A stretch of 46,124 nucleotides of DNA. Source: an uncultured Gammaproteobacteria bacterium (GTDB taxonomy: Bacteria > Pseudomonadota > Gammaproteobacteria > Magnimaribacterales > Magnimaribacteraceae). The DNA lies in contig CAXFFS010000001.1 of NCBI GenBank assembly GCA_964002385.1, positions 1 to 46,124 of the forward strand, read 5' to 3'. Of the stretch, positions 11,666-20,328 are shown one piece after another. The translations under genes and the position numbers were made by a program. The notes beneath the pieces are model-generated. The model was given only the letters and a program-made list of their open reading frames with translations. It did not search any database and was not told the origin of the DNA. Position 1 is the first letter of the stretch. The number at the start of each line of letters is the position of its first letter.

Positions 11666-11935
11666 CTATAACTTTTTTGACTCATCATATCCTAGGATTC
11701 CTTCCTGTTTAGAATTCTTTCCTTCTTCCAAAGAAACTTTATATCCATCCACATAAGATAGTTCTTTGATACCATCTATATGCATTTTCTTATCCTGGAA
11801 CTCCTTTAAACTTAAGACGTTCTCCTTGGCTTTTTTAGGATCTTCAGCTGCAGTAAAAAAGTTCATATGAACCTCATAGAGCCCTTCTCCTATTGAAGGG
11901 TCATAGTAACCAACATGCACCATGTATAAATTCAT
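11666..11935 (-). CDS. Small conserved hypothetical protein (possibly DUF1543)
   Basis: 89 aa. The family assignment rests only on remembered patterns (MVHVGYY...HMNFF...HIDG..EL..VDGY.V.L). Confidence 0.4.
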   Translation of the reverse strand: MNLYMVHVGYYDPSIGEGLYEVHMNFFTAAEDPKKAKENVLSLKEFQDKKMHIDGIKELSYVDGYKVSLEEGKNSKQEGILGYDESKKL

Positions 11936-12361: not shown

Positions 12362-12949
12362 ATGGCTAAGAACAATAAAGATACTAACTTTGAATTGGAA
12401 ATTTCTCAAAAAGAACTACAAGAATTCATTGAAAATTTAGATCCTAAAAGGAATATTCAAGATCTAGCTGCATCTGCAGCTGAAATAATAGCCTCTGCCG
12501 GATTTTCTACGCACTGGGATGATATTTTACCTATGTTGGATGATGAACATATTTCAGAAGATTTAAGATTGGCTGCACATATTATTTTTAGAGCTAAACT
12601 AGTATTGGAAGAGATGGAAAAAGATTCTTCGTTACGTAATATCGTCTATAACACAATGCTAATGATGGATGCCTTAGAGGTGGCCAACATAAAGGGATAT
12701 ATTCCTTCTGCATCTGATGTGAATTTCAATAAAATGGAAGCCAAAACTTCGAGTATGAATATGGCTATCAAAAAAGAAAAAATCATTGATACCATAAGAC
12801 AGTTGGCGAAAGAAAATCCGAAAAAAGGCATCACTTGGCTTAGAAAAAGAGCATCTACCTTGCTTAGTTCTGAAACACAGAAAGGATATAGTTATAGACA
12901 AATCTTAAGAGATACTAAGGGAATGAGAATAAAAAATGATAAAACTTAA
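12362..12949 (+). CDS. Hypothetical protein (orphan, helical, acidic N-terminus and basic C-terminus)
   Basis: 195-aa ORF with coding-like composition and no recognisable motif. Its stop overlaps the crcB stop (shared TTAA). Confidence 0.5.
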   Translation: MAKNNKDTNFELEISQKELQEFIENLDPKRNIQDLAASAAEIIASAGFSTHWDDILPMLDDEHISEDLRLAAHIIFRAKLVLEEMEKDSSLRNIVYNTMLMMDALEVANIKGYIPSASDVNFNKMEAKTSSMNMAIKKEKIIDTIRQLAKENPKKGITWLRKRASTLLSSETQKGYSYRQILRDTKGMRIKNDKT

Positions 12950-13315: not shown

Positions 13316-13392
13316 TGGTGGGCCGTCGGCGACTCGAACGCCGGACCAATTCCTTAAAAGGGAACTGCTCTACCAAACTGAGCTAACGGCCC
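13316..13392 (-). tRNA. tRNA-Lys (anticodon UUU), CCA encoded
   Basis: The reverse complement is GGGCCGTTAGCTCAGTTTGGTAGAGCAGTTCCCTTTTAAGGAATTGGTCCGGCGTTCGAGTCGCCGACGGCCCACCA. I folded it manually into a cloverleaf: 7-bp acceptor stem GGGCCGT/ACGGCCC, D stem GCTC/GAGC, anticodon stem GTTCC/GGAAT with loop CTTTTAA, T arm CGGCG-TTCGAGT-CGCCG. Confidence 0.95.
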
Positions 13393-13394
13393 AA
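13354..13394. repeat. Direct repeat copy 1 (41 bp): tRNA-Lys from 2 nt upstream of the 5' end through the anticodon loop
   Basis: ttaaaagggaactgctctaccaaactgagctaacggcccaa is identical to 20288..20328, checked base by base. Confidence 0.95.
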
Positions 13395-13513
13395 GGTCGG
13401 CATTATACATATTAACAATTAATAATTTGATATAGTCAAATTATGAAAATACTTCTCTTCAAAGTACTTCTTCAAATGATGAGATCTTATTAATTAAAAA
13501 GATATAATTTGAT

Positions 13514-14203
13514 ATGAATTCTTCCTTAAATTTAATTTGGACCAGAACTCAAAATGTTATTGGTTTTGTTTTAATGATAGTTTTCTTGGCTTATCCATTC
13601 CCTAGACTTGTTTTTATTTCAATAGCTGCCTGGATTTTAATTTCTACCACAGTCACGGCAATTTTACTAAAAACTACCTTTACCATAGCCAATACAGTTA
13701 CTATTTCAAGAGCATATGGATTGGTAATTTTTTCTTTTTTGCTTGCTTACAATCAATCTGTCACTAACTTATCTATTTTTATTTTAGGAATCTGTTTAAT
13801 GGCAGATTTTTTTGATGGTTACCTTGCCAGAATCTTTACGACAAGTTCTGCAGGAAAAGTGCTTGATGGAGAGACTGATCAACAGTTTGTGTTAGTAGCA
13901 GCTTCTACAGCTTTTATTTTTTTAGATATTTCTTTTTGGGTGTTACTTTTCCCCAGCATGAAGTATATTTTTGAAACTTGTTATGATCTATTTAGATTAA
14001 AAGTTAACGAAAAAGAAGGAAAGAAAAGAAGGAAAATTATTGCTGCAATTGTAATGATTATTTTATTTATAAACCTAGCTTTTATAGAAGAAGAATCTAG
14101 TATCTTTTTTTATTTAATAGGTCTCCTAGCACTTTCCTACTCTTTTTTAACAGATCTAATTAGGGCATTGAAGTCACAATTAAAGAATAATCATGTCTCT
14201 TAA
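13514..14203 (+). CDS. CDP-alcohol phosphatidyltransferase family membrane protein
   Basis: 229 aa, polytopic. It carries the signature ADFFDGYLARIFTTSSAGKVLDGETDQ (DxxDGxxAR...GxxxDxxxD). Confidence 0.85.
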   Translation: MNSSLNLIWTRTQNVIGFVLMIVFLAYPFPRLVFISIAAWILISTTVTAILLKTTFTIANTVTISRAYGLVIFSFLLAYNQSVTNLSIFILGICLMADFFDGYLARIFTTSSAGKVLDGETDQQFVLVAASTAFIFLDISFWVLLFPSMKYIFETCYDLFRLKVNEKEGKKRRKIIAAIVMIILFINLAFIEEESSIFFYLIGLLALSYSFLTDLIRALKSQLKNNHVS

Positions 14204-14897
14204 CAAACAACAAAAAATTGTTAATTGGTTTGATATAACATATAAACGTAAAGGTTTTTCTTATCTACGAACTTCTGAAGCATATGAAGTATTCACTAAG
14301 ATTTTGAACTTAAAATCAGGTGACTCAGTTCTTGATGTTGCTTGCGGACCAGGACTTTTTTTAAGTCTCGCAAATGAAATTGATTGTAGATGTACAGGTA
14401 TTGATGCTTCTAAAGAAGCTGTAAAAATGGCTCAAAACTATACTCCTGAATCTGAGATCTATTTGGGAAATTCAGAAAAATTACCTTTTGAAGACAATAG
14501 CTTTGATGTGGTAGTTTGTATTGGTGCCTTAGAGCGTTTTGTAAATCTCCAAGAAGCTCTTGCTGAACAACTTCGTGTCGCTAAACAAAATTCTCGTTTT
14601 TGCTTCTTAGTTAGAAATTCAAGTAGTATTTTATGGACTATCAACATGAAAATATTGAGGCGTCAAAATACAGCTGGACATCAAGATGCAAAGTCACTGG
14701 ATCAGTGGAAACATGTTTTCGAATCTAATGGCTTTAATATTGAAAAAATTTTTCCTGACCAATGGCCTTTACATAAAATAATCTCATTCTTTCCTTTATT
14801 TATAAAAAAAAGAATTATGCTAAGTATTCATAAAGGGGTTTTTCCTCTTAGTCTTTCTGGAGAATTCATATTTCTTCTCTCCAAAAAAAACCCTTAA
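14193..14897 (+). CDS. Class I SAM-dependent methyltransferase
   Basis: 234 aa. Motif I is VLDVACGPGLF and the post-I/II region is LPFEDNSFDVVVCIGALERF. It overlaps the upstream gene by 11 nt. Confidence 0.85.
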   Translation: MSLNKQQKIVNWFDITYKRKGFSYLRTSEAYEVFTKILNLKSGDSVLDVACGPGLFLSLANEIDCRCTGIDASKEAVKMAQNYTPESEIYLGNSEKLPFEDNSFDVVVCIGALERFVNLQEALAEQLRVAKQNSRFCFLVRNSSSILWTINMKILRRQNTAGHQDAKSLDQWKHVFESNGFNIEKIFPDQWPLHKIISFFPLFIKKRIMLSIHKGVFPLSLSGEFIFLLSKKNP

Positions 14898-14903
14898 AAA
14901 TAT

Positions 14904-16505
14904 GTGGTTTTAATGATTGAAAGAAGAATTTACTACTTTATATTGGCTATTTTGTCCGCTCTGTTTTTAAATCTTTTCCTTTCAATATCCTTCACCCCAG
15001 AAAAATGGTTCAGATTAAGTTCAGATTTACTTTTATTTTTACCTTTTCTGTTAATAACAAGTTCTTTATCTAAAAAACCAAATTTCTGGATACATTTGTT
15101 TTGTTTATTAATTTGTTTATTTGGTCTTTACAGGTGCCTCAGTTTAGTTTCTGAATTGATCTTTCATAGACCATTTTCTTTCTTTGATATATTTCTAATT
15201 TCTGAATTAGATTATTTCATAGATCAGAGTCTATCTGCTTATGAAAAAAGCTTATTCATACTAGTAACTCTATCAACAGCTATCCTAAGTTATCTTGTGA
15301 TATTCAGTATCAGTAAATGGATAGTTAAATCATTCAGGTTAAGTAAAAAGATTACGCTGGCAGGAATCTTTTTAGGATTTTTCATGATAGTTTTTATTCA
15401 ATTTTTAGTCATTAAAGAAGGTGATAATTTTTCTGTAACAAGGGGTTTATATTTAAAAGATTTTGTTGTTTTTTTTGATGAAGCCCTAGAAGGGATAAAA
15501 ATCAAAAATAACAAAGATCTAGTAAAAAAAAACCTTGAGTTATCTAACAGCTTCTTAAATAAAGATGCTTATGATCTATCAAAAATAAGTAACACTAATG
15601 TTGTTATTATATTTGTTGAATCGTATGGAGCTGTGTTAGTTCAAAATTCAGATTTATTTGAATCTTATCAAAGCTTTTATACTGAAATGAATACCAAATT
15701 AGAAAAAAAGTTTTTCTCCATGGTTACTGGTTATTCAGCAGCTCCTGAAAGTTCTTGGCTTTCTAGACTAAGTTTTTCATCCGGCACAAAGATGGATCAC
15801 AGATACATAGCTAACCTAGCAATGGTGTCCAATTTGACGACATTAAATAAGAAATTTTCTTTAGAAGGTCATAAAACTTTTAGTTTTATGCCAGGTGTCA
15901 CTGAACATGTTGAATACATAGAATCATTCTTCGATTTCGAAAAAAGAATTCGTTTTTGGCATTTAGATTGGCCTGCTGATATAAATCCAGTTGGCTGGGC
16001 AGTCATTCCAGATCAATTTGCTTTGGAGTGGTTGGGAAGAAAATCAAGTTTCGAGAACTTAACCCCTTTTTACACAGAGATAGTCCTCTCAAGCAGCCAT
16101 ACACCATTTGGCGAAGTGCCTCCTTACATACCAAAAGGAAATTTTAACTTAGAAGACTATCCTTTTATTAAAAAAAGAAATTCTTTGGGTATTTTGTCTC
16201 ACATGGAAAGCAGCCCTAAAAAATACATGATTTCAATTGAATATAGTCTCAATTCAGTTTGTGACTTTATTGAAAAATATCTTAGCCCGGAAGATTTGAT
16301 TATTGTGATAGGAGATCATCAACCTCCTGTACTGAAAACTAATTCTAATCTAGTTCCAGTACATATTATTAGTGGTAAAAAGAGCTTATTAGACCCATTT
16401 GAAAAAATAGGTTTCCATAACAATTTATCTCAATTAAAACTTAAAAAACATATTAATCACGAAGACATTGCGGAATTCCTATTGGAGAACTATTCTTCTT
16501 ATTAA
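14904..16505 (+). CDS. Membrane-anchored alkaline-phosphatase-superfamily protein (sulfatase / LTA-synthase / phospho-alcohol transferase-like)
   Basis: 533 aa with about 5 N-terminal TM helices and then an extracytoplasmic domain. That domain has VVIIFVESYGAVL (metal/nucleophile region) and IIVIGDHQPP (the GDH motif of the superfamily). The start is GTG at 14904 or ATG at 14913. Confidence 0.6.
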   Translation: MVLMIERRIYYFILAILSALFLNLFLSISFTPEKWFRLSSDLLLFLPFLLITSSLSKKPNFWIHLFCLLICLFGLYRCLSLVSELIFHRPFSFFDIFLISELDYFIDQSLSAYEKSLFILVTLSTAILSYLVIFSISKWIVKSFRLSKKITLAGIFLGFFMIVFIQFLVIKEGDNFSVTRGLYLKDFVVFFDEALEGIKIKNNKDLVKKNLELSNSFLNKDAYDLSKISNTNVVIIFVESYGAVLVQNSDLFESYQSFYTEMNTKLEKKFFSMVTGYSAAPESSWLSRLSFSSGTKMDHRYIANLAMVSNLTTLNKKFSLEGHKTFSFMPGVTEHVEYIESFFDFEKRIRFWHLDWPADINPVGWAVIPDQFALEWLGRKSSFENLTPFYTEIVLSSSHTPFGEVPPYIPKGNFNLEDYPFIKKRNSLGILSHMESSPKKYMISIEYSLNSVCDFIEKYLSPEDLIIVIGDHQPPVLKTNSNLVPVHIISGKKSLLDPFEKIGFHNNLSQLKLKKHINHEDIAEFLLENYSSY

Positions 16506-16516
16506 GTAAGGAAAAA

Positions 16517-17641
16517 ATGAATAAAATTAATAACGTAAAAAATGCTATTAAAGTTTCTTCGTTCATTCAGTCTAGCGATCTAGATCTTGACAAAACTACA
16601 CGAGAATTGTGGCCAGCTATACTAGCCTTAAAAAATTTCTTGGTTTCTGCTAATTCTCTTCCTACAACAGGATATTTTCTCAGAAAAGAAGATAAAAATT
16701 CTTGGGAATATTTTGTTCCTAAAGAAAAAAAATCTTTCAAATTTTTTGAGAAAAATTTCAAATTTGTTATTGAAGTTAGATCAACTCCAAATTTTAAAAG
16801 AGAAGAAATTAATAATTTAAATAATCAAAAAAGTAAAACCTTTACTTCTTTTCATTTAACCGAACTGATTAATCAAAATCTGAATTCCAAAATAACCAAG
16901 ATGGTTAATTTGGATTATGACTTAATAAGAGCAATAACTTCCCTTAGCTTGTATTTACCCATTATTTTAGGGGAATGGGAAGCTAAGCAATCTGCTTCAA
17001 TTTTCGTAACAGGTCACTTAACTCAGTCTGAAGATGGGAAAATTGCAAAGAAAGATGGTTCTCCAATTTGGTTAGGGGGAGAATTAGATAAGATGCATAC
17101 ACATAGATTAAGAAGTCTTCATGGATCTTTGTTGATAGGATCAAAAACCCTTAAGCATGATAACCCCCAATTAAATGTGAGGCACTGTGAAGGAAAAAAT
17201 CCTGATCTAATAATTTTTGAAACTAATGATGAGGATTTCTTTGACAAAAAACTTTTTCAGTTAAAAAAAAGAAAAATTTTTCTTTTATGTAGAAATCAAA
17301 GAGAAATGAGTAAAAATTTCAAACTAAAGTCCATAATAAAGAATATAAAATTTGACTGTAATAAAACATTTATATCTCCCAAAGAAATCTTAACCAAGCT
17401 TGTTAAAAACAATATTCATTCTATATTTATAGAGGGTGGAGGAATAACTATCTCGCATTTTCTTGTTGCAAATTTGTTTGATCGTTTTCACTTACAAACC
17501 TCGGATAAAACTCTTGGTTCTGGAATTAATTCTTTTAATCTTCCAACTTCTTCAGATATTGAAAACATATCTGCTTTTATTAGGACTGACTACAAAATTG
17601 ATGAACAAACTTTGTCTGATTATTCTAAAGTGATTCCTTGA
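16517..17641 (+). CDS. Protein with a C-terminal RibD-C / dihydrofolate-reductase-like reductase domain and an unknown ~160-aa N-terminal domain
   Basis: 374 aa. The C-terminal half reads IFVTGHLTQSEDGKIA...LRSLHGSLLIGSKTLKHDNPQLNVR...IFIEGGGITISHFLVANLFDRFHL, as in RibD C-terminal domain (PF01872-type) proteins. Confidence 0.6.
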   Translation: MNKINNVKNAIKVSSFIQSSDLDLDKTTRELWPAILALKNFLVSANSLPTTGYFLRKEDKNSWEYFVPKEKKSFKFFEKNFKFVIEVRSTPNFKREEINNLNNQKSKTFTSFHLTELINQNLNSKITKMVNLDYDLIRAITSLSLYLPIILGEWEAKQSASIFVTGHLTQSEDGKIAKKDGSPIWLGGELDKMHTHRLRSLHGSLLIGSKTLKHDNPQLNVRHCEGKNPDLIIFETNDEDFFDKKLFQLKKRKIFLLCRNQREMSKNFKLKSIIKNIKFDCNKTFISPKEILTKLVKNNIHSIFIEGGGITISHFLVANLFDRFHLQTSDKTLGSGINSFNLPTSSDIENISAFIRTDYKIDEQTLSDYSKVIP

Positions 17642-17666
17642 TCTGGATAAGTACACTAATAGTAAA

Positions 17667-18725
17667 ATGTTTGAAATTGAAGTTCTACAACCACCAAGAA
17701 ATAATCTTCAGTCTGGTGGCTATTTGTTTAATTATAAAATAACTCAAAACCTCAAAAAGAAATGCTCTTGTCGACTAGTTGAAATTGAAAATAAAGATCT
17801 TGTTAAATACTTATCAAAACGTGCTAAGAATAAATCTGTAATTATCTTAGATAGTATTTATCTTAAATATATAGATTATTCAGAAATTGAACCTTTATTG
17901 AAGGGTAGAAACCGTAGAATTATGCTTTTATTGCACTTATTACCTAGCGCTGACTTAAATAAAGAAAATTCAACTCTCACTTTAAAACGAAAAATTCAAT
18001 CTAGAGAACTAGGTTGGATTAAGAAAAGCAACTTAGTAATTATAGTAACAGGTAAAAATTACAAAAAAGAGCTGGTTAAAAAAGGGGTTTGCCCTTCGAG
18101 GATAAAGGTTATCTACCCGGGCCAAGAAACCAAAATACTTAAGAATAAAGAAGTATCAAATAGAGTAAAGCATCCTGTAAGAGGTGTAACAGTTGGTTCT
18201 ATATGTCCAAGAAAGAATCAAATTCTGCTTCTAGAAATACTAAGAAAAATTAAACCTGAGTTATATGAATGGACCTTTATAGGTAATATGGATATATCTC
18301 CTAAATACACCAAAAAATTAATTCATATTGTTAAAAAGGGTAAGATGAAAAATAGTATATTTTTTAAAGATCAGATTCATCACACAAAAGTCATTGAGAA
18401 CCTTCTTCAATCAGATTTATACGTGTCAACTTCAGTTCAGGAGTCCTACGGCATATCTGTAGCAGAAGCTTGTAGTGTAGGTCTACCAGTATTGTCTTTA
18501 AATACTGGAGACTTTTCTTATTGGGTACAAAATAATAAAAATGGTTATTTAATAGACCAAGAAAATACGAAAGAACTTGAAAATAAAATACTTGCTGTTC
18601 TTGCTGATTTAAATTTATTAAATCAATTGAAGATTTCTTCCATAAAGCTTAGCAAAGAAATATCTATTCCCACTTGGGAACAAAGTAGCTCAAAATTTGA
18701 GAAAATCTGTTGTTCTCTCTACTAA
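17667..18725 (+). CDS. Glycosyltransferase, GT4 (GT-B fold) family
   Basis: 352 aa. The C-terminal ESYGISVAEACSVGLPVLSLNTGD is the E-x7-E-like donor-binding region of group-1 glycosyltransferases. Confidence 0.8.
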   Translation: MFEIEVLQPPRNNLQSGGYLFNYKITQNLKKKCSCRLVEIENKDLVKYLSKRAKNKSVIILDSIYLKYIDYSEIEPLLKGRNRRIMLLLHLLPSADLNKENSTLTLKRKIQSRELGWIKKSNLVIIVTGKNYKKELVKKGVCPSRIKVIYPGQETKILKNKEVSNRVKHPVRGVTVGSICPRKNQILLLEILRKIKPELYEWTFIGNMDISPKYTKKLIHIVKKGKMKNSIFFKDQIHHTKVIENLLQSDLYVSTSVQESYGISVAEACSVGLPVLSLNTGDFSYWVQNNKNGYLIDQENTKELENKILAVLADLNLLNQLKISSIKLSKEISIPTWEQSSSKFEKICCSLY

Positions 18726-19702
18726 TGATGAAAACTTATAGTTACTGGGTTATTGAAGCCAACAAAGGAGAGATTCGAGAATCCAACCTCAAAGAAGAAA
18801 AAGATTACTCACTAGTAAAGACCTTGTTATCAGGAATAAGTACTGGAACGGAAAAACTCGTTGGTAAAAGAAATGTTCCAAGCTCAGCTTACAATTTTAT
18901 GTCTGTTCCATACATGGAAGGTAACTTTGATCTTCCTATTAAGTATGGTTACAGCTTGGTTGGAGTACCTCTGAGTGGAAAATACAAAGGTTTAAGGACA
19001 TTTATCATGCACCCACATCAAACTTTATTTTATGCATCTGACAGTGACTTATTAGTCTTACCAGATGAAATTTCTAATGAAGCAGCCATTTTGATCCCTT
19101 ATTTAGAAACAGCTTTAAATGCTATATGGGATGCAAAACTTAGACAAAAGGAAAGTGTTGCTATTGTGGGTGGAGGGAATTTGGGCATCTTTGTAGGCTT
19201 TGTGCTTAAGTCTATGGATATAAAATTTTCACTTATTGAAAAAAGCTATAAACGCTACAGAAAAATATTGAATCTAAAATGGATAACTTCTACCTACAAG
19301 GAAAGTTCTGATCTAGGACAAACTTTTGACGTGATATTCAATACTTCAGGTTCGTCTGAAGGTCTTCAAAAATCTTTAGATATAGGAGGATTTGAGAGTA
19401 GAGTTATAGATTTAAGTTGGTATGGGTCAACCAATGTAAACTTGAATTTAGGTGAATCTTTTCACTGGAACAGAAAAAAAATTATTTCTTCCCAAGTTTC
19501 TCACGTAGCAGCTCCTAAGAGAATATCAGTTAGCAAAGACGAAAGACTGAAACAGGTCCTTGACCTATTGAGAGATCCTGTTTTAAATAAGTTTGGAAGG
19601 TGTGAAATAGAATTTAAAAACTTACCAGGATTTATGCATCAATTATATGCAAATAAAGACGTTGGATGGTCTCCTATAATTCATTATGAAAGAAATAGCT
19701 AA
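18725..19702 (+). CDS. Medium-chain dehydrogenase/reductase (MDR) family protein lacking the catalytic zinc ligands
   Basis: The Rossmann motif is VAIVGGGNLGIFVG. The positions of the ADH motifs GxCxxD and GHE read GISTGTE and GYS (Cys to Ser, His to Tyr, Glu to Ser). I chose the ATG at 18725 (TAATG overlap with the GT stop). The ORF track uses TTG at 18710. Confidence 0.65.
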   Translation: MMKTYSYWVIEANKGEIRESNLKEEKDYSLVKTLLSGISTGTEKLVGKRNVPSSAYNFMSVPYMEGNFDLPIKYGYSLVGVPLSGKYKGLRTFIMHPHQTLFYASDSDLLVLPDEISNEAAILIPYLETALNAIWDAKLRQKESVAIVGGGNLGIFVGFVLKSMDIKFSLIEKSYKRYRKILNLKWITSTYKESSDLGQTFDVIFNTSGSSEGLQKSLDIGGFESRVIDLSWYGSTNVNLNLGESFHWNRKKIISSQVSHVAAPKRISVSKDERLKQVLDLLRDPVLNKFGRCEIEFKNLPGFMHQLYANKDVGWSPIIHYERNS

Positions 19703-20079
19703 TGTATAGTCTTTCAGTAAATGATTTTTTCATGGTCGCCCACAGTCTAAAAGGTAAAGAATTTGGTCAAGCTCAAAATCTTCATGGGGCCACCTTTGAA
19801 ATTACAACTGAATATAAAGTTAAAAAGTTAAATAATTTAGGAATAGTGATAGATGTTGTAGTTGCAAGTGAAATTCTAAAAAAGGTAATAAAGCAGTTTA
19901 ATTATAAGAATTTAGACGATTTAAAAGAATTTCAAAATTTAAACACATCTATGGAAGTACTCTGTGAGTATATTCACAAACAAATTTCAGGACTTTTACT
20001 GGGTAACTTTGAAGGCTCTCTAAAGGTCACAATTAAGGAAAATCCATTAGCCCAATGTTCCTTTGAAGATAAAATCTAA
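19702..20079 (+). CDS. 6-pyruvoyl-tetrahydropterin synthase / QueD (COG0720)-like protein with a degenerate active site
   Basis: 125 aa. FFMVAHSL....GQAQNLHGATFEI aligns with the QueD sequence FEAAHRL....CGRLHGHSF. However, the Cys and third His are both Ala here, and the DHH of LDHHYLN is NYK (FNYKNLD). The ATG overlaps the upstream stop. Confidence 0.55.
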   Translation: MYSLSVNDFFMVAHSLKGKEFGQAQNLHGATFEITTEYKVKKLNNLGIVIDVVVASEILKKVIKQFNYKNLDDLKEFQNLNTSMEVLCEYIHKQISGLLLGNFEGSLKVTIKENPLAQCSFEDKI

Positions 20080-20287
20080 ACTTTGTTTAGGTTTGTAACC
20101 TTGGTATCCAAATAACAGCAAAAAAGTTTATTAGAGCTTTTAAAAATAAACTAATTTCAAACATATTTTAGGGATAGCTAAGGGATAGCAATTAATATGA
20201 GTCTATGTCAAGGTATACAGATTTTATAGGCTTATATAACAACATATAATGTTGATATATAAAGGAATTTGGGATTAGATAACTTCT

Positions 20288-20328
20288 TTAAAAGGGAACT
20301 GCTCTACCAAACTGAGCTAACGGCCCAA
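20288..20328 (-). pseudogene. Direct repeat copy 2: orphan 5' half of tRNA-Lys (positions 1 through the anticodon loop, plus 2 upstream nt)
   Basis: It is identical over 41 bp to 13354..13394. Identity stops exactly at the 3' edge of the anticodon loop, and 4 of the next 6 nt still match. No 3' half follows. Confidence 0.9.

Follow-up and report, generated by a model that had tools for sequence, protein, structure and literature searches.

A tRNA-Lys island of SAR86 bacteria carries a candidate pathway joining pterin-type enzymes to phospholipid head-group chemistry

Introduction

This work concerns seven tightly packed genes on a contig of an uncultured gammaproteobacterium (CAXFFS010000001.1 of assembly GCA_964002385.1); the whole stretch of 46,124 nucleotides (nt) that was analysed is referred to as the window, and proteins flanking the island fall in 90%-identity clusters whose members bear the names "SAR86 cluster bacterium" or "Gammaproteobacteria bacterium", which places the host in SAR86. 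Genes 1 to 7 encode, in order, a cytidine diphosphate (CDP)-alcohol phosphatidyltransferase (CDP-OH), a class I S-adenosylmethionine (SAM)-dependent methyltransferase, a membrane protein resembling the phosphotransferases LtaS and EptA (protein 3), a RibD-like protein, a glycosyltransferase of family 4 (GT4), an atypical dehydrogenase of the medium-chain dehydrogenase/reductase (MDR) superfamily and a protein of the 6-pyruvoyltetrahydropterin synthase (PTPS) family. A preliminary description, made from the sequence without database searches, regarded these genes as a candidate undescribed pathway, and all seven open reading frames (ORFs) lie on one strand between 13514 and 20079, as it had placed them.

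The soluble half of this gene set has been noticed before. PTPS-IV was given the signature FGPAQ and a gene neighbourhood holding PF00925 and PF01872, that is, guanosine triphosphate (GTP) cyclohydrolase II (GCH II) and the reductase domain RibD_C (PMC5445326, AGeNNT 2017). RibD_C is found in the window operon too, and GCH II in 41 of 83 related loci and not in the window; the dehydrogenase, GT4, the methyltransferases, the CDP-alcohol transferase and the LtaS-like enzyme are not part of the published neighbourhood. The earlier claim that the pathway is undescribed holds for the pathway as a whole and not for this soluble half. It has also been stated in a 2016 review, on the basis of unpublished data, that PTPS-IV is linked to archaeal F420 synthesis (PMC5041015, Zallot et al.), which is the sole functional statement on PTPS-IV. 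The candidate identity of PTPS-IV as the predicted archaeal pyrimidine deaminase "PyrD" was rejected, since the source names no protein family.

The loci of Streptomyces are a further point of comparison. Three of them (L079, L082 and L088) hold orthologues of SCO6650 of S. coelicolor that are 85–90% identical, with the gene order CDP-OH <> MDR-PTPS-GT4-methyltransferase-flippase-like-RibD_C-GCH II; SCO6650, of which a crystal structure is available (3d7j), is the Streptomyces orthologue of gene 7. Compared with this locus, the window is without GCH II, a methyltransferase-like gene of ~290 amino acids (aa) and the flippase-like gene; its methyltransferase is of another kind, and its LtaS-like gene stands alone. 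The GCH II paralogue at the SCO6650 locus, which we take to be SCO6655, was reportedly treated by Spoonamore et al. in 2006 and 2008. In a 2026 review, the third Streptomyces RibA copy is said to have a function "unrelated to flavin biosynthesis" (PMC13151069).

The early archaeal and fungal riboflavin pathway proceeds through GCH II or III and then a Rib7/ArfC reductase before deamination, and the cassette to which the window operon belongs likewise has GCH II and a reductase of the RibD_C fold without an active deaminase. Unlike the riboflavin pathway, it is without DHBP synthase, lumazine synthase and riboflavin synthase, continues with a glycosyltransferase, a dehydrogenase, a methyltransferase and lipid enzymes, and in SAR86 is dispensable and mobile.

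On the membrane side, PgsA, PIP synthase and CAP-type cardiolipin synthase have the family and the catalytic motif in common with gene 1, which differs from them in that its genomic partners are unrelated to the synthesis of phosphatidylglycerol (PG), phosphatidylinositol or cardiolipin. LtaS/LtaP, GacH, OpgB/MdoB, EptA/MCR-1 and EptC have, like protein 3, five transmembrane (TM) segments and an extracytoplasmic domain of the alkaline-phosphatase fold; enzymes of the LtaS/GacH/MCR-1/EptC type also share with protein 3 the Glu, Ser/Thr, Asp and His set of metal ligands and nucleophile, at a sequence identity between protein 3 and LtaS/EptA-type phosphotransferases of 9–16%. Unlike these enzymes, the protein 3 family is genetically coupled to a dedicated CDP-alcohol transferase, in 10 loci as one polypeptide with the CDP-OH part first (counted at domain level), which points to the donor being a dedicated lipid and not bulk PG or phosphatidylethanolamine (PE).

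No paper was found that assigns the cassette a function or describes the whole cassette or its product, we found no curated family model for the pathway, and no cluster protein reaches a curated cut-off in NCBIfam (June 2026 release); the preliminary description, which had named no characterised pathway, was right in this respect. The reading preferred here, to which we give a probability of roughly 0.5, is that the cluster makes a glycosylated, methylated alcohol resembling a ribitylaminopyrimidine or a pterin, which would become the head group of a phospholipid and would then be transferred to an acceptor in the envelope.

Distribution and Modular Organisation of the Cassette

Related loci were sought with the dehydrogenase as anchor and one genome per species. 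At least 598 dehydrogenase-anchored loci are present in species-representative genomes of more than eight phyla, with carriers in Cyanobacteria, Planctomycetota, Bacteroidota, Alpha-, Beta- and Gammaproteobacteria, Actinomycetota, Gemmatimonadota and Acidobacteriota. The combination is thus not peculiar to this genome: the window operon is a trimmed-down form of a cassette that is very widespread, and it most resembles the type found in Planctomycetota and Saprospiraceae. The ORFs of 83 loci were scored with iterated hidden Markov models (HMMs); many of these loci end at contig ends, so that the counts are lower bounds. A PTPS-like gene is present in 77 of the 83 loci, GT4, adjoining the PTPS-like gene, in 71, and RibD_C in 69, and all three occur together in 60; a methyltransferase of any kind is present in 60, CDP-OH in 44, GCH II in 41 (filtered by score, since the GCH II HMM also weakly matches RibD_C proteins), the flippase-like LPG_synthase_TM in 31 and an LtaS-like gene in 30. 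The genes thus co-occur well outside this genome, and the tally agrees with the suggestion in the preliminary description that in other phyla uncharacterised COG0720 subfamilies have glycosyltransferase, dehydrogenase and methyltransferase genes as neighbours.

Three neighbourhoods belonging to different phyla have RibD_C, dehydrogenase, PTPS-like, GT4 and CDP-alcohol transferase genes together, and the Catalinimonas cluster additionally has a GCH II gene. When a distant homologue of protein 3 (P0360) was used as an independent anchor, the full set was found in a Rhodospirillales genome (L101), and only the pair of LtaS-like and CDP-OH genes in a Chloroflexi genome (L100). The system consists of two separable modules: a soluble core of GCH II, RibD_C, PTPS-IV, the atypical MDR, GT4 and at least one methyltransferase, and a membrane module of CDP-OH and the LtaS/EptA-like protein. 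An LtaS-like domain is always accompanied by CDP-OH, in 31 of 31 loci (the 30 above and the window). Recurring neighbours include a PEMT/ICMT-like membrane methyltransferase, a flippase-like gene and an FkbM methyltransferase; in L101 (11614–13086), a 490-aa CDP-OH_P_transf::FkbM methyltransferase fusion lies beside the LtaS-like gene and a GT2 gene. No cytidylyltransferase was found to recur among the cluster neighbours, which favours CDP-diacylglycerol as the activated donor. In addition, the soluble core adjoins MdoH/OpgH in 15 alpha- and betaproteobacterial loci (for instance L085, 8064–9926, and L032, 15093–16886), and in L032 it is also beside a ChvA/NdvA-type glucan exporter, the OpgH and exporter matches both lying above curated cut-offs. 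These OpgH-adjacent loci are without the CDP-alcohol transferase and the LtaS-like gene, and the adjacency in some Proteobacteria suggests periplasmic glucans as a possible acceptor.

Enzymes of the Soluble Module

The reductase part of gene 4 was correctly recognised in the preliminary description: PF01872 matches residues 164–339 (90.8 bits, 1e-25), and the invariant D173, G174 and E306-G-G are common with true RibD in the alignment, the score against the NCBIfam ribD equivalog being 82.6 bits, under the cut-off of 156.35. The AlphaFold2 (AF2) model, with a predicted local distance difference test score (pLDDT) of 82, has full-length RibG/RibD as top Foldseek matches (~370 columns, TMq 0.55), and its reductase domain matches Rib7/ArfC-type reductases at a TMt of ~0.8. 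The N-terminal ~160 aa, formerly called a novel domain, form an alpha/beta domain that overlays the RibD/RibG deaminase domain in fold, an overlay without sequence support: the hhalign probability against true deaminase domains is 0.4%, residues 1–160 contain no PF00383 and neither the H-A-E nor the P-C-x-x-C zinc motif, both of which the true RibD rows have, and the region has only close SAR86-type relatives and one sequence at 30% identity. That this part is a degenerate deaminase domain is reasonable but unproven. In one related island (L006, 125–6738), the RibD-like gene is broken into ORFs of 106 aa and 246 aa.

Gene 7 belongs to the PTPS family, as had been proposed (PF01242, 77 bits, 1.5e-21), and its sequence assigns it to the PTPS-IV subfamily of COG0720, which already had its name; it falls outside the catalytic PTPS and QueD subfamilies, the QueD equivalog scoring 44.9 bits against a cut-off of 89.25. 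Its top PDB match is SCO6650 (1.3e-19), and true QueD/PTPS entries follow at 0.01 or worse. Gene 7 reads FGQAQ..HGAT (QAQNLHGAT) and, like SCO6650, is without the catalytic Cys and the third zinc His, which is replaced by Ala. FGPAQ is present in 70 of 80 cluster-linked homologues, and the C(3-5)HGH or ExxHGH motif of PTPS-I/II/III in none of the 80. Five PTPS-IV-like representatives (P0205, P0209, P0213, P0216 and P0240) have lengths of 370–855 aa, and the query aligns to them in 3 or 4 tandem stretches, which gives them the look of T-fold proteins in multiple copies.

Gene 6 matches zinc-dependent polyol and threonine dehydrogenases, and also butanediol dehydrogenases, over the Rossmann half only (profile positions 104–232; best 1.7e-12), with a GxGxxG motif (invariant G149, G151 and G154) and an invariant HPHQ. 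There is no conserved Cys in the family, and its N-terminal domain is not alignable to zinc MDRs. The canonical zinc ligands appear to be lacking, as was said of this "zinc-less" MDR, and zinc-lessness itself is not proven; the invariant H96, H98, E43 and E128 could form another metal site. NCBIfam gave just a weak BchC-like match, and the highest identity among the matches listed from species-representative genomes is 43%. The methyltransferase and GT4 calls made earlier for genes 2 and 5 are borne out by matches above threshold to PF08241 (73.7 bits, 2e-20) and PF00534 (83.4 bits against a cut-off of 26.4, 2e-23; no equivalog cut-off reached), respectively, and the gene 2 type of methyltransferase recurs in the Planctomycetota and Saprospiraceae cluster variants.

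The GTP Cyclohydrolase II Link

GCH II lies inside the cluster in Bacteroidota, Cyanobacteria, Actinomycetota and Proteobacteria, and in Nostoc and Scytonema it forms a single 576-aa protein with RibD_C; it is part of the ancestral cassette. The cluster-linked enzymes have Tyr at the position equivalent to Y105 of E. coli RibA in most lineages, whereas Streptomyces and Amycolatopsis have Met and Saccharothrix has His. This position (Met120) is presumably a specificity switch in GCH II. A creatininase-family gene (PF02633) with a weak match to ArfB, the archaeal formylaminopyrimidine deformylase, is present in 13 loci, including L082 (5852–6628); among them are Streptomyces and Saccharothrix loci whose GCH II has Met or His. 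In a Gaiellales metagenome-assembled genome (L027, 15054–15707), Phe-Ser-Ser is aligned at the three zinc-binding cysteines of GCH II, and this copy may be inactive or repurposed.

Enzymes of the Membrane Module

The preliminary description had called gene 1 a CDP-alcohol phosphatidyltransferase with an intact motif, and both points were confirmed: PF01066 matches with 49.9 bits against a cut-off of 22 (E 6e-13), and the motif D-x2-DG-x2-AR-x7-G-x3-D-x3-D is read in the translation as DFFDGYLAR-IFTTSSA-GKVLDGETD. Hydropathy gives 5–7 hydrophobic segments. Gene 1 falls in no named equivalog among PgsA, ClsA, PssA and PIPS, all of which are under their NCBIfam cut-offs, the best matches being ClsA with 37 bits (cut-off 240) and PgsA with 25.7 bits (cut-off 109).

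Protein 3 by itself has no direct match in Pfam, NCBIfam or a single-sequence PDB search, PF00884 staying below threshold; at the level of its family, PF00884 is matched by 11 of 14 members (best 2e-13), and the top PDB match of the family profile is the lipoteichoic acid primase LtaP. The AF2 model (pLDDT 85.2), in which helices span residues 2–169, matches LtaP, LtaS, GacH, MCR-1, PbgA and EptC before true sulfatases in Foldseek, with E values of 4e-8 to 5e-5 against LtaP, LtaS, GacH, MCR-1 and EptC and with full-length structural alignments to MCR-1 and PbgA. Hydropathy and the positive-inside rule give an N-in topology with 5 TM segments and the catalytic domain outside. The earlier call of a 5-TM LtaS-like protein is upheld by the family matches, the LtaP profile match, the model and the topology. 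Two alignments give E239, S240, S284, H399, D471 and H472 as invariant in the family, and the spacing of 45 between E239 and S284 equals that of E255–T300 in S. aureus LtaS. The fusion and adjacency to CDP-OH suggest that protein 3 may transfer a phospho-alcohol from a phospholipid to an acceptor.

Proposed Pathway and Alternative Explanations

From the enzyme families and their genomic company we infer every chemical step, the order of the steps, the donor lipid and the acceptor. GCH II, presumably the housekeeping enzyme in this genome and cluster-encoded in other phyla, would open GTP to 2,5-diamino-6-(5-phosphoribosylamino)pyrimidin-4-one, and the RibD_C-type reductase of gene 4 would convert the ribosyl to a ribityl moiety without deamination; because the domain in the deaminase position has no zinc site, the 2-amino-4-oxo (pterin-like) ring is probably kept. 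PTPS-IV (gene 7) and the MDR dehydrogenase (gene 6) would then tailor the side chain or the ring. As a speculation, the dehydrogenase might oxidise the ribityl 2'-hydroxyl beside the 5-amino group, leading to ring closure to a dihydropterin, which would account for a pterin-binding T-fold protein being there. GT4 (gene 5) would attach a sugar, gene 2 would methylate the glycosylated product, and gene 1 would couple the alcohol to CDP-diacylglycerol, so that a phospholipid bearing an unusual head group results. In the last step, the periplasmic catalytic domain of the gene 3 product would form a Ser284-phospho intermediate, pass the phospho-head group on to an acceptor in the envelope and release diacylglycerol. 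Three gene fusions connect steps of this scheme: GCH II with RibD_C, CDP-OH with the LtaS-like protein, and CDP-OH with an FkbM methyltransferase. The proposed logic parallels that of PG with LtaS, GacH or OpgB and that of PE with EptA or MCR-1.

Several points weigh against this proposal. The chemistry put forward is drawn wholly from homology and gene context, and the type of substrate reduced is left undecided by gene 4, whose domain is about equally similar to both Rib7-specificity types. GCH II is absent from the operon and from the 46-kb window by tblastn. Gene 7, having neither the zinc site nor the catalytic Cys, may bind rather than catalyse, and the reported link of PTPS-IV to F420 points to a cofactor rather than a lipid. 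The Foldseek TM-scores of protein 3 are modest, at 0.35–0.47. Furthermore, many Proteobacteria have the core without CDP-OH and the LtaS-like gene, beside OpgH/ChvA instead, and the Chloroflexi genome has the CDP-OH and LtaS-like pair without the core, so that the core need not have an end product bound to lipid.

It is also conceivable, although unlikely, that the phospholipid itself is the end product and stays in the membrane, with no transfer to another polymer. Gene 1 would then use a 5'-phosphorylated ribityl compound, as PgsA uses glycerol-3-phosphate or PIP synthase inositol-1-phosphate, and the LtaS-like protein would be a head-group hydrolase or phosphatase acting after flipping, or a PbgA-like lipid binder. 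It is established in riboflavin chemistry that the products of GCH II and RibD_C bear a 5'-phosphate, as gene 1 would need here; the non-transferase PbgA/YejM is among the structural matches of protein 3, and 14 loci have CDP-OH without an LtaS-like gene, which indicates that a lipid product can stand alone. However, E239, S284, D471 and H472 are fully conserved, like those of the active transferases LtaS, GacH and MCR-1, and the catalytic domain of protein 3 is on the side of the membrane opposite the active sites of CDP-alcohol transferases.

The co-occurrence data bear on a rather unlikely alternative, in which the core makes a free glycosylated, methylated pterin or pyrimidine metabolite (a cofactor, ultraviolet (UV) screen, pigment or signal) and the membrane genes are a separate module that just travels along or serves export or anchoring. 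Pterin glycosides occur in cyanobacteria, CDP-OH and LtaS-like genes are missing beside the core in roughly half of the loci, and the membrane pair is alone in L100. Against this, the seven genes of the window, with gaps of at most 25 nt, move as one 6.9-kb unit, the dehydrogenase-anchored loci with an LtaS-like gene all have CDP-OH beside the core, CDP-OH is fused to a methyltransferase in L101, and membrane methyltransferase and flippase-like genes lie inside the clusters. The suggestion that PTPS-IV acts in archaeal F420 synthesis (PMC5041015) is on the side of a free metabolite.

The second of the two hypotheses in the preliminary description, a teichoic-acid-like polyol-phosphate decoration, taken here as a chain that the LtaS-like enzyme would polymerise on the outer face from the special phospholipid, with the reductase and the dehydrogenase supplying the polyol, appears quite improbable. 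RibD_C enzymes reduce ribosylaminopyrimidines rather than free sugar phosphates and are fused to GCH II in cyanobacteria, and the cassette has no cytidylyltransferase and no TagF/TarL-type polymerase; the nearest structural relatives of protein 3 are nevertheless lipoteichoic acid synthases and primases, and polyol-type MDR dehydrogenases are the nearest to gene 6. Sequence cannot separate polymerisation from a single transfer. Preference is given to the first of the two hypotheses, in which a ribityl- or pterin-like alcohol, glycosylated and methylated, is carried on a phosphodiester; GCH II belongs to the ancestral cassette, and Nostoc and Scytonema have it fused to RibD_C.

An ordinary locus, be it an alternative supply of riboflavin, F420 or folate or an O-antigen or capsule cluster, is very improbable: although the RibD_C and PTPS families have their place in riboflavin and pterin pathways and GT4 is common in polysaccharide loci, the island has no RibB, RibH, RibE, FolB, FolK, FolP, CofG or CofH, nor does it encode Wzx, Wzy, Wzz, an ABC exporter or an initiating polyprenyl-phosphate transferase, no equivalog cut-off is reached, the island is dispensable in near-identical genomes, and neither RibB, RibH or RibE nor a Wzx/Wzy/ABC exporter with an initiating transferase was found in the 46-kb window by inspection of the island ORFs and tblastn.

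Genomic Island and Operon Layout

As shown in Table 1, the seven genes lie in an island next to a tRNA-Lys(UUU) gene, which is just upstream of them on the opposite strand, with tol-pal genes downstream. The two copies of the direct repeat found by a repeat search of the window are 44/45 identical at a spacing of 6,934 bp, and the guanine–cytosine content of the island is 0.29–0.32, compared with 0.33–0.38 in the flanks.

Table 1. Coordinates of the island, its boundaries and its genes in the window.
Feature	Coordinates	Strand	Evidence or remark
tRNA-Lys(UUU), intact, integration target	13316..13392	-	ARAGORN; Rfam tRNA, 67 bits
Left 45-nt direct repeat, left island boundary	13350..13394		tRNA positions 1-43 + 2 nt upstream
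Genomic island, 6,934 bp	13395..20328		Seven genes, no integrase
Gene 1, CDP-alcohol phosphatidyltransferase, 229 aa, multi-TM	13514..14203	+	PF01066, intact motif
Gene 2, class I SAM-dependent methyltransferase, 234 aa	14193..14897	+	PF08241
Gene 3, LtaS/EptA/GacH-type membrane phosphotransferase (predicted)	14904..16505	+	Family profile, AF2/Foldseek, topology
Gene 4, RibD-like protein, 374 aa	16517..17641	+	PF01872, AF2/Foldseek
Gene 5, GT4 glycosyltransferase, 352 aa	17667..18725	+	PF00534
Gene 6, atypical dehydrogenase of the MDR superfamily, 325 aa from ATG 18725	18725..19702	+	Rossmann GxGxxG
Gene 7, PTPS-IV-type T-fold protein, 125 aa	19702..20079	+	PF01242, signature FGQAQ..HGAT
Right 45-nt repeat, right island boundary	20284..20328		5' tRNA-Lys fragment beside original upstream flank

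The cluster is a mobile, strain-variable island exchanged between SAR86 lineages. The exact PTPS-like protein is found in 525 assembly-index blocks, mostly marine metagenome contigs, and in 6 of 6 contexts viewed the seven genes lie between crcB/tRNA-Lys and cpoB-pal-tolB. Meanwhile, the cluster is missing from all 10 contigs with an identical Pal protein (L090–L099, one of them 824 kb long), which have just 116 nt between cpoB and crcB and whose flanks are 97–99.8% identical to the window. In the empty-site contig L090, ...acggcccaa is joined straight to agaaaggcg...; the window equals the empty site up to ...gagctaacggcccaa and then holds 6.9 kb of extra DNA; at the end of this DNA the first 43 nt of the tRNA gene are repeated, and the original flank resumes. 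The strain-variable tRNA island of the preliminary description is thereby corroborated through the tRNA-Lys gene, the 45-nt repeat and the empty sites, the presence/absence polymorphism being read from L090–L099 on one side and the window with L001–L006 on the other. In L004, the flanks are 81–82% identical to the window and the island 99.5%, which indicates recent transfer between SAR86 lineages; in L006, the flanks are 99.5% identical and the island 93.5%, a different allele.

The ORFs of the island are the seven biosynthetic genes only, and no integrase or recombinase gene was found among them. tRNA-targeting integrases normally duplicate the tRNA 3' end, whereas the repeat observed here duplicates the 5' part of tRNA-Lys; the intact tRNA-Lys now has island DNA upstream, and the 5' tRNA fragment remains with the original upstream flank. 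The last gene is followed, up to the right repeat, by ~200 nt of non-coding DNA (20080–20283), in which there are a short tandem duplication (agggatagc-taagggatagc) and palindromic stretches rich in AT; this DNA could be the remnant of an attachment or recombination site. Two small conserved ORFs beside crcB, at 12362–12949 (195 aa) and 11666–11935 (89 aa), have no Pfam family and occur in SAR86 contigs with and without the island.

Genes 1 to 5 follow one another with an 11-nt overlap and then gaps of 6, 11 and 25 nt, and the last two junctions are 1-nt overlaps if gene 6 starts at ATG 18725, where metagenome gene callers place it, TTG 18710 being an alternative; this spacing suggests that the seven genes are co-transcribed. 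Scans for promoters and terminators gave site counts at or below shuffled expectation, and a riboswitch search of the window and seven loci found nothing. The best promoter-like match, ATGAGA-18-TATAAT (13479–13514), ends 6 nt ahead of the gene 1 ATG and would, if real, give a nearly leaderless transcript, a weak suggestion given that the scan had fewer sites than shuffled sequence.

Biological Significance

If the proposed pathway is correct, it would be the first link of the GCH II branch of purine-derived cofactor chemistry to the biosynthesis of membrane lipids or the envelope. The ligands presented by MR1 to mucosal-associated invariant T (MAIT) cells have ribitylaminopyrimidines as precursors, and pterins are redox-active and UV-absorbing, so that display of such a compound at the surface could be of consequence for recognition by hosts, for light biology or for phage adsorption; a role of the island in phage evasion is speculation. 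Culturable carriers, among them Streptomyces, Chromohalobacter, Agrobacterium larrymoorei, Nostoc and Catalinimonas, make the pathway directly testable.

SAR86 is among the most abundant bacterial groups of the ocean, and the clean presence/absence polymorphism of the island, together with its recent transfer, makes it a tractable marker of surface microdiversity. In a broader form, held tentatively and at somewhat less than even odds, many phyla may make a new class of membrane lipids, the head group being a GTP-derived heterocycle that is formed by way of GCH II, of ribitylaminopyrimidine or pterin type, and bears sugar and methyl substituents, with which the LtaS-like enzyme would decorate the envelope, and in SAR86 this would have become a mobile, surface-changing cassette. 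If the pathway holds, it would also provide a function for PTPS-IV, for SCO6650 and its GCH II paralogue, and for a dehydrogenase family of at least 598 species-level genomes.

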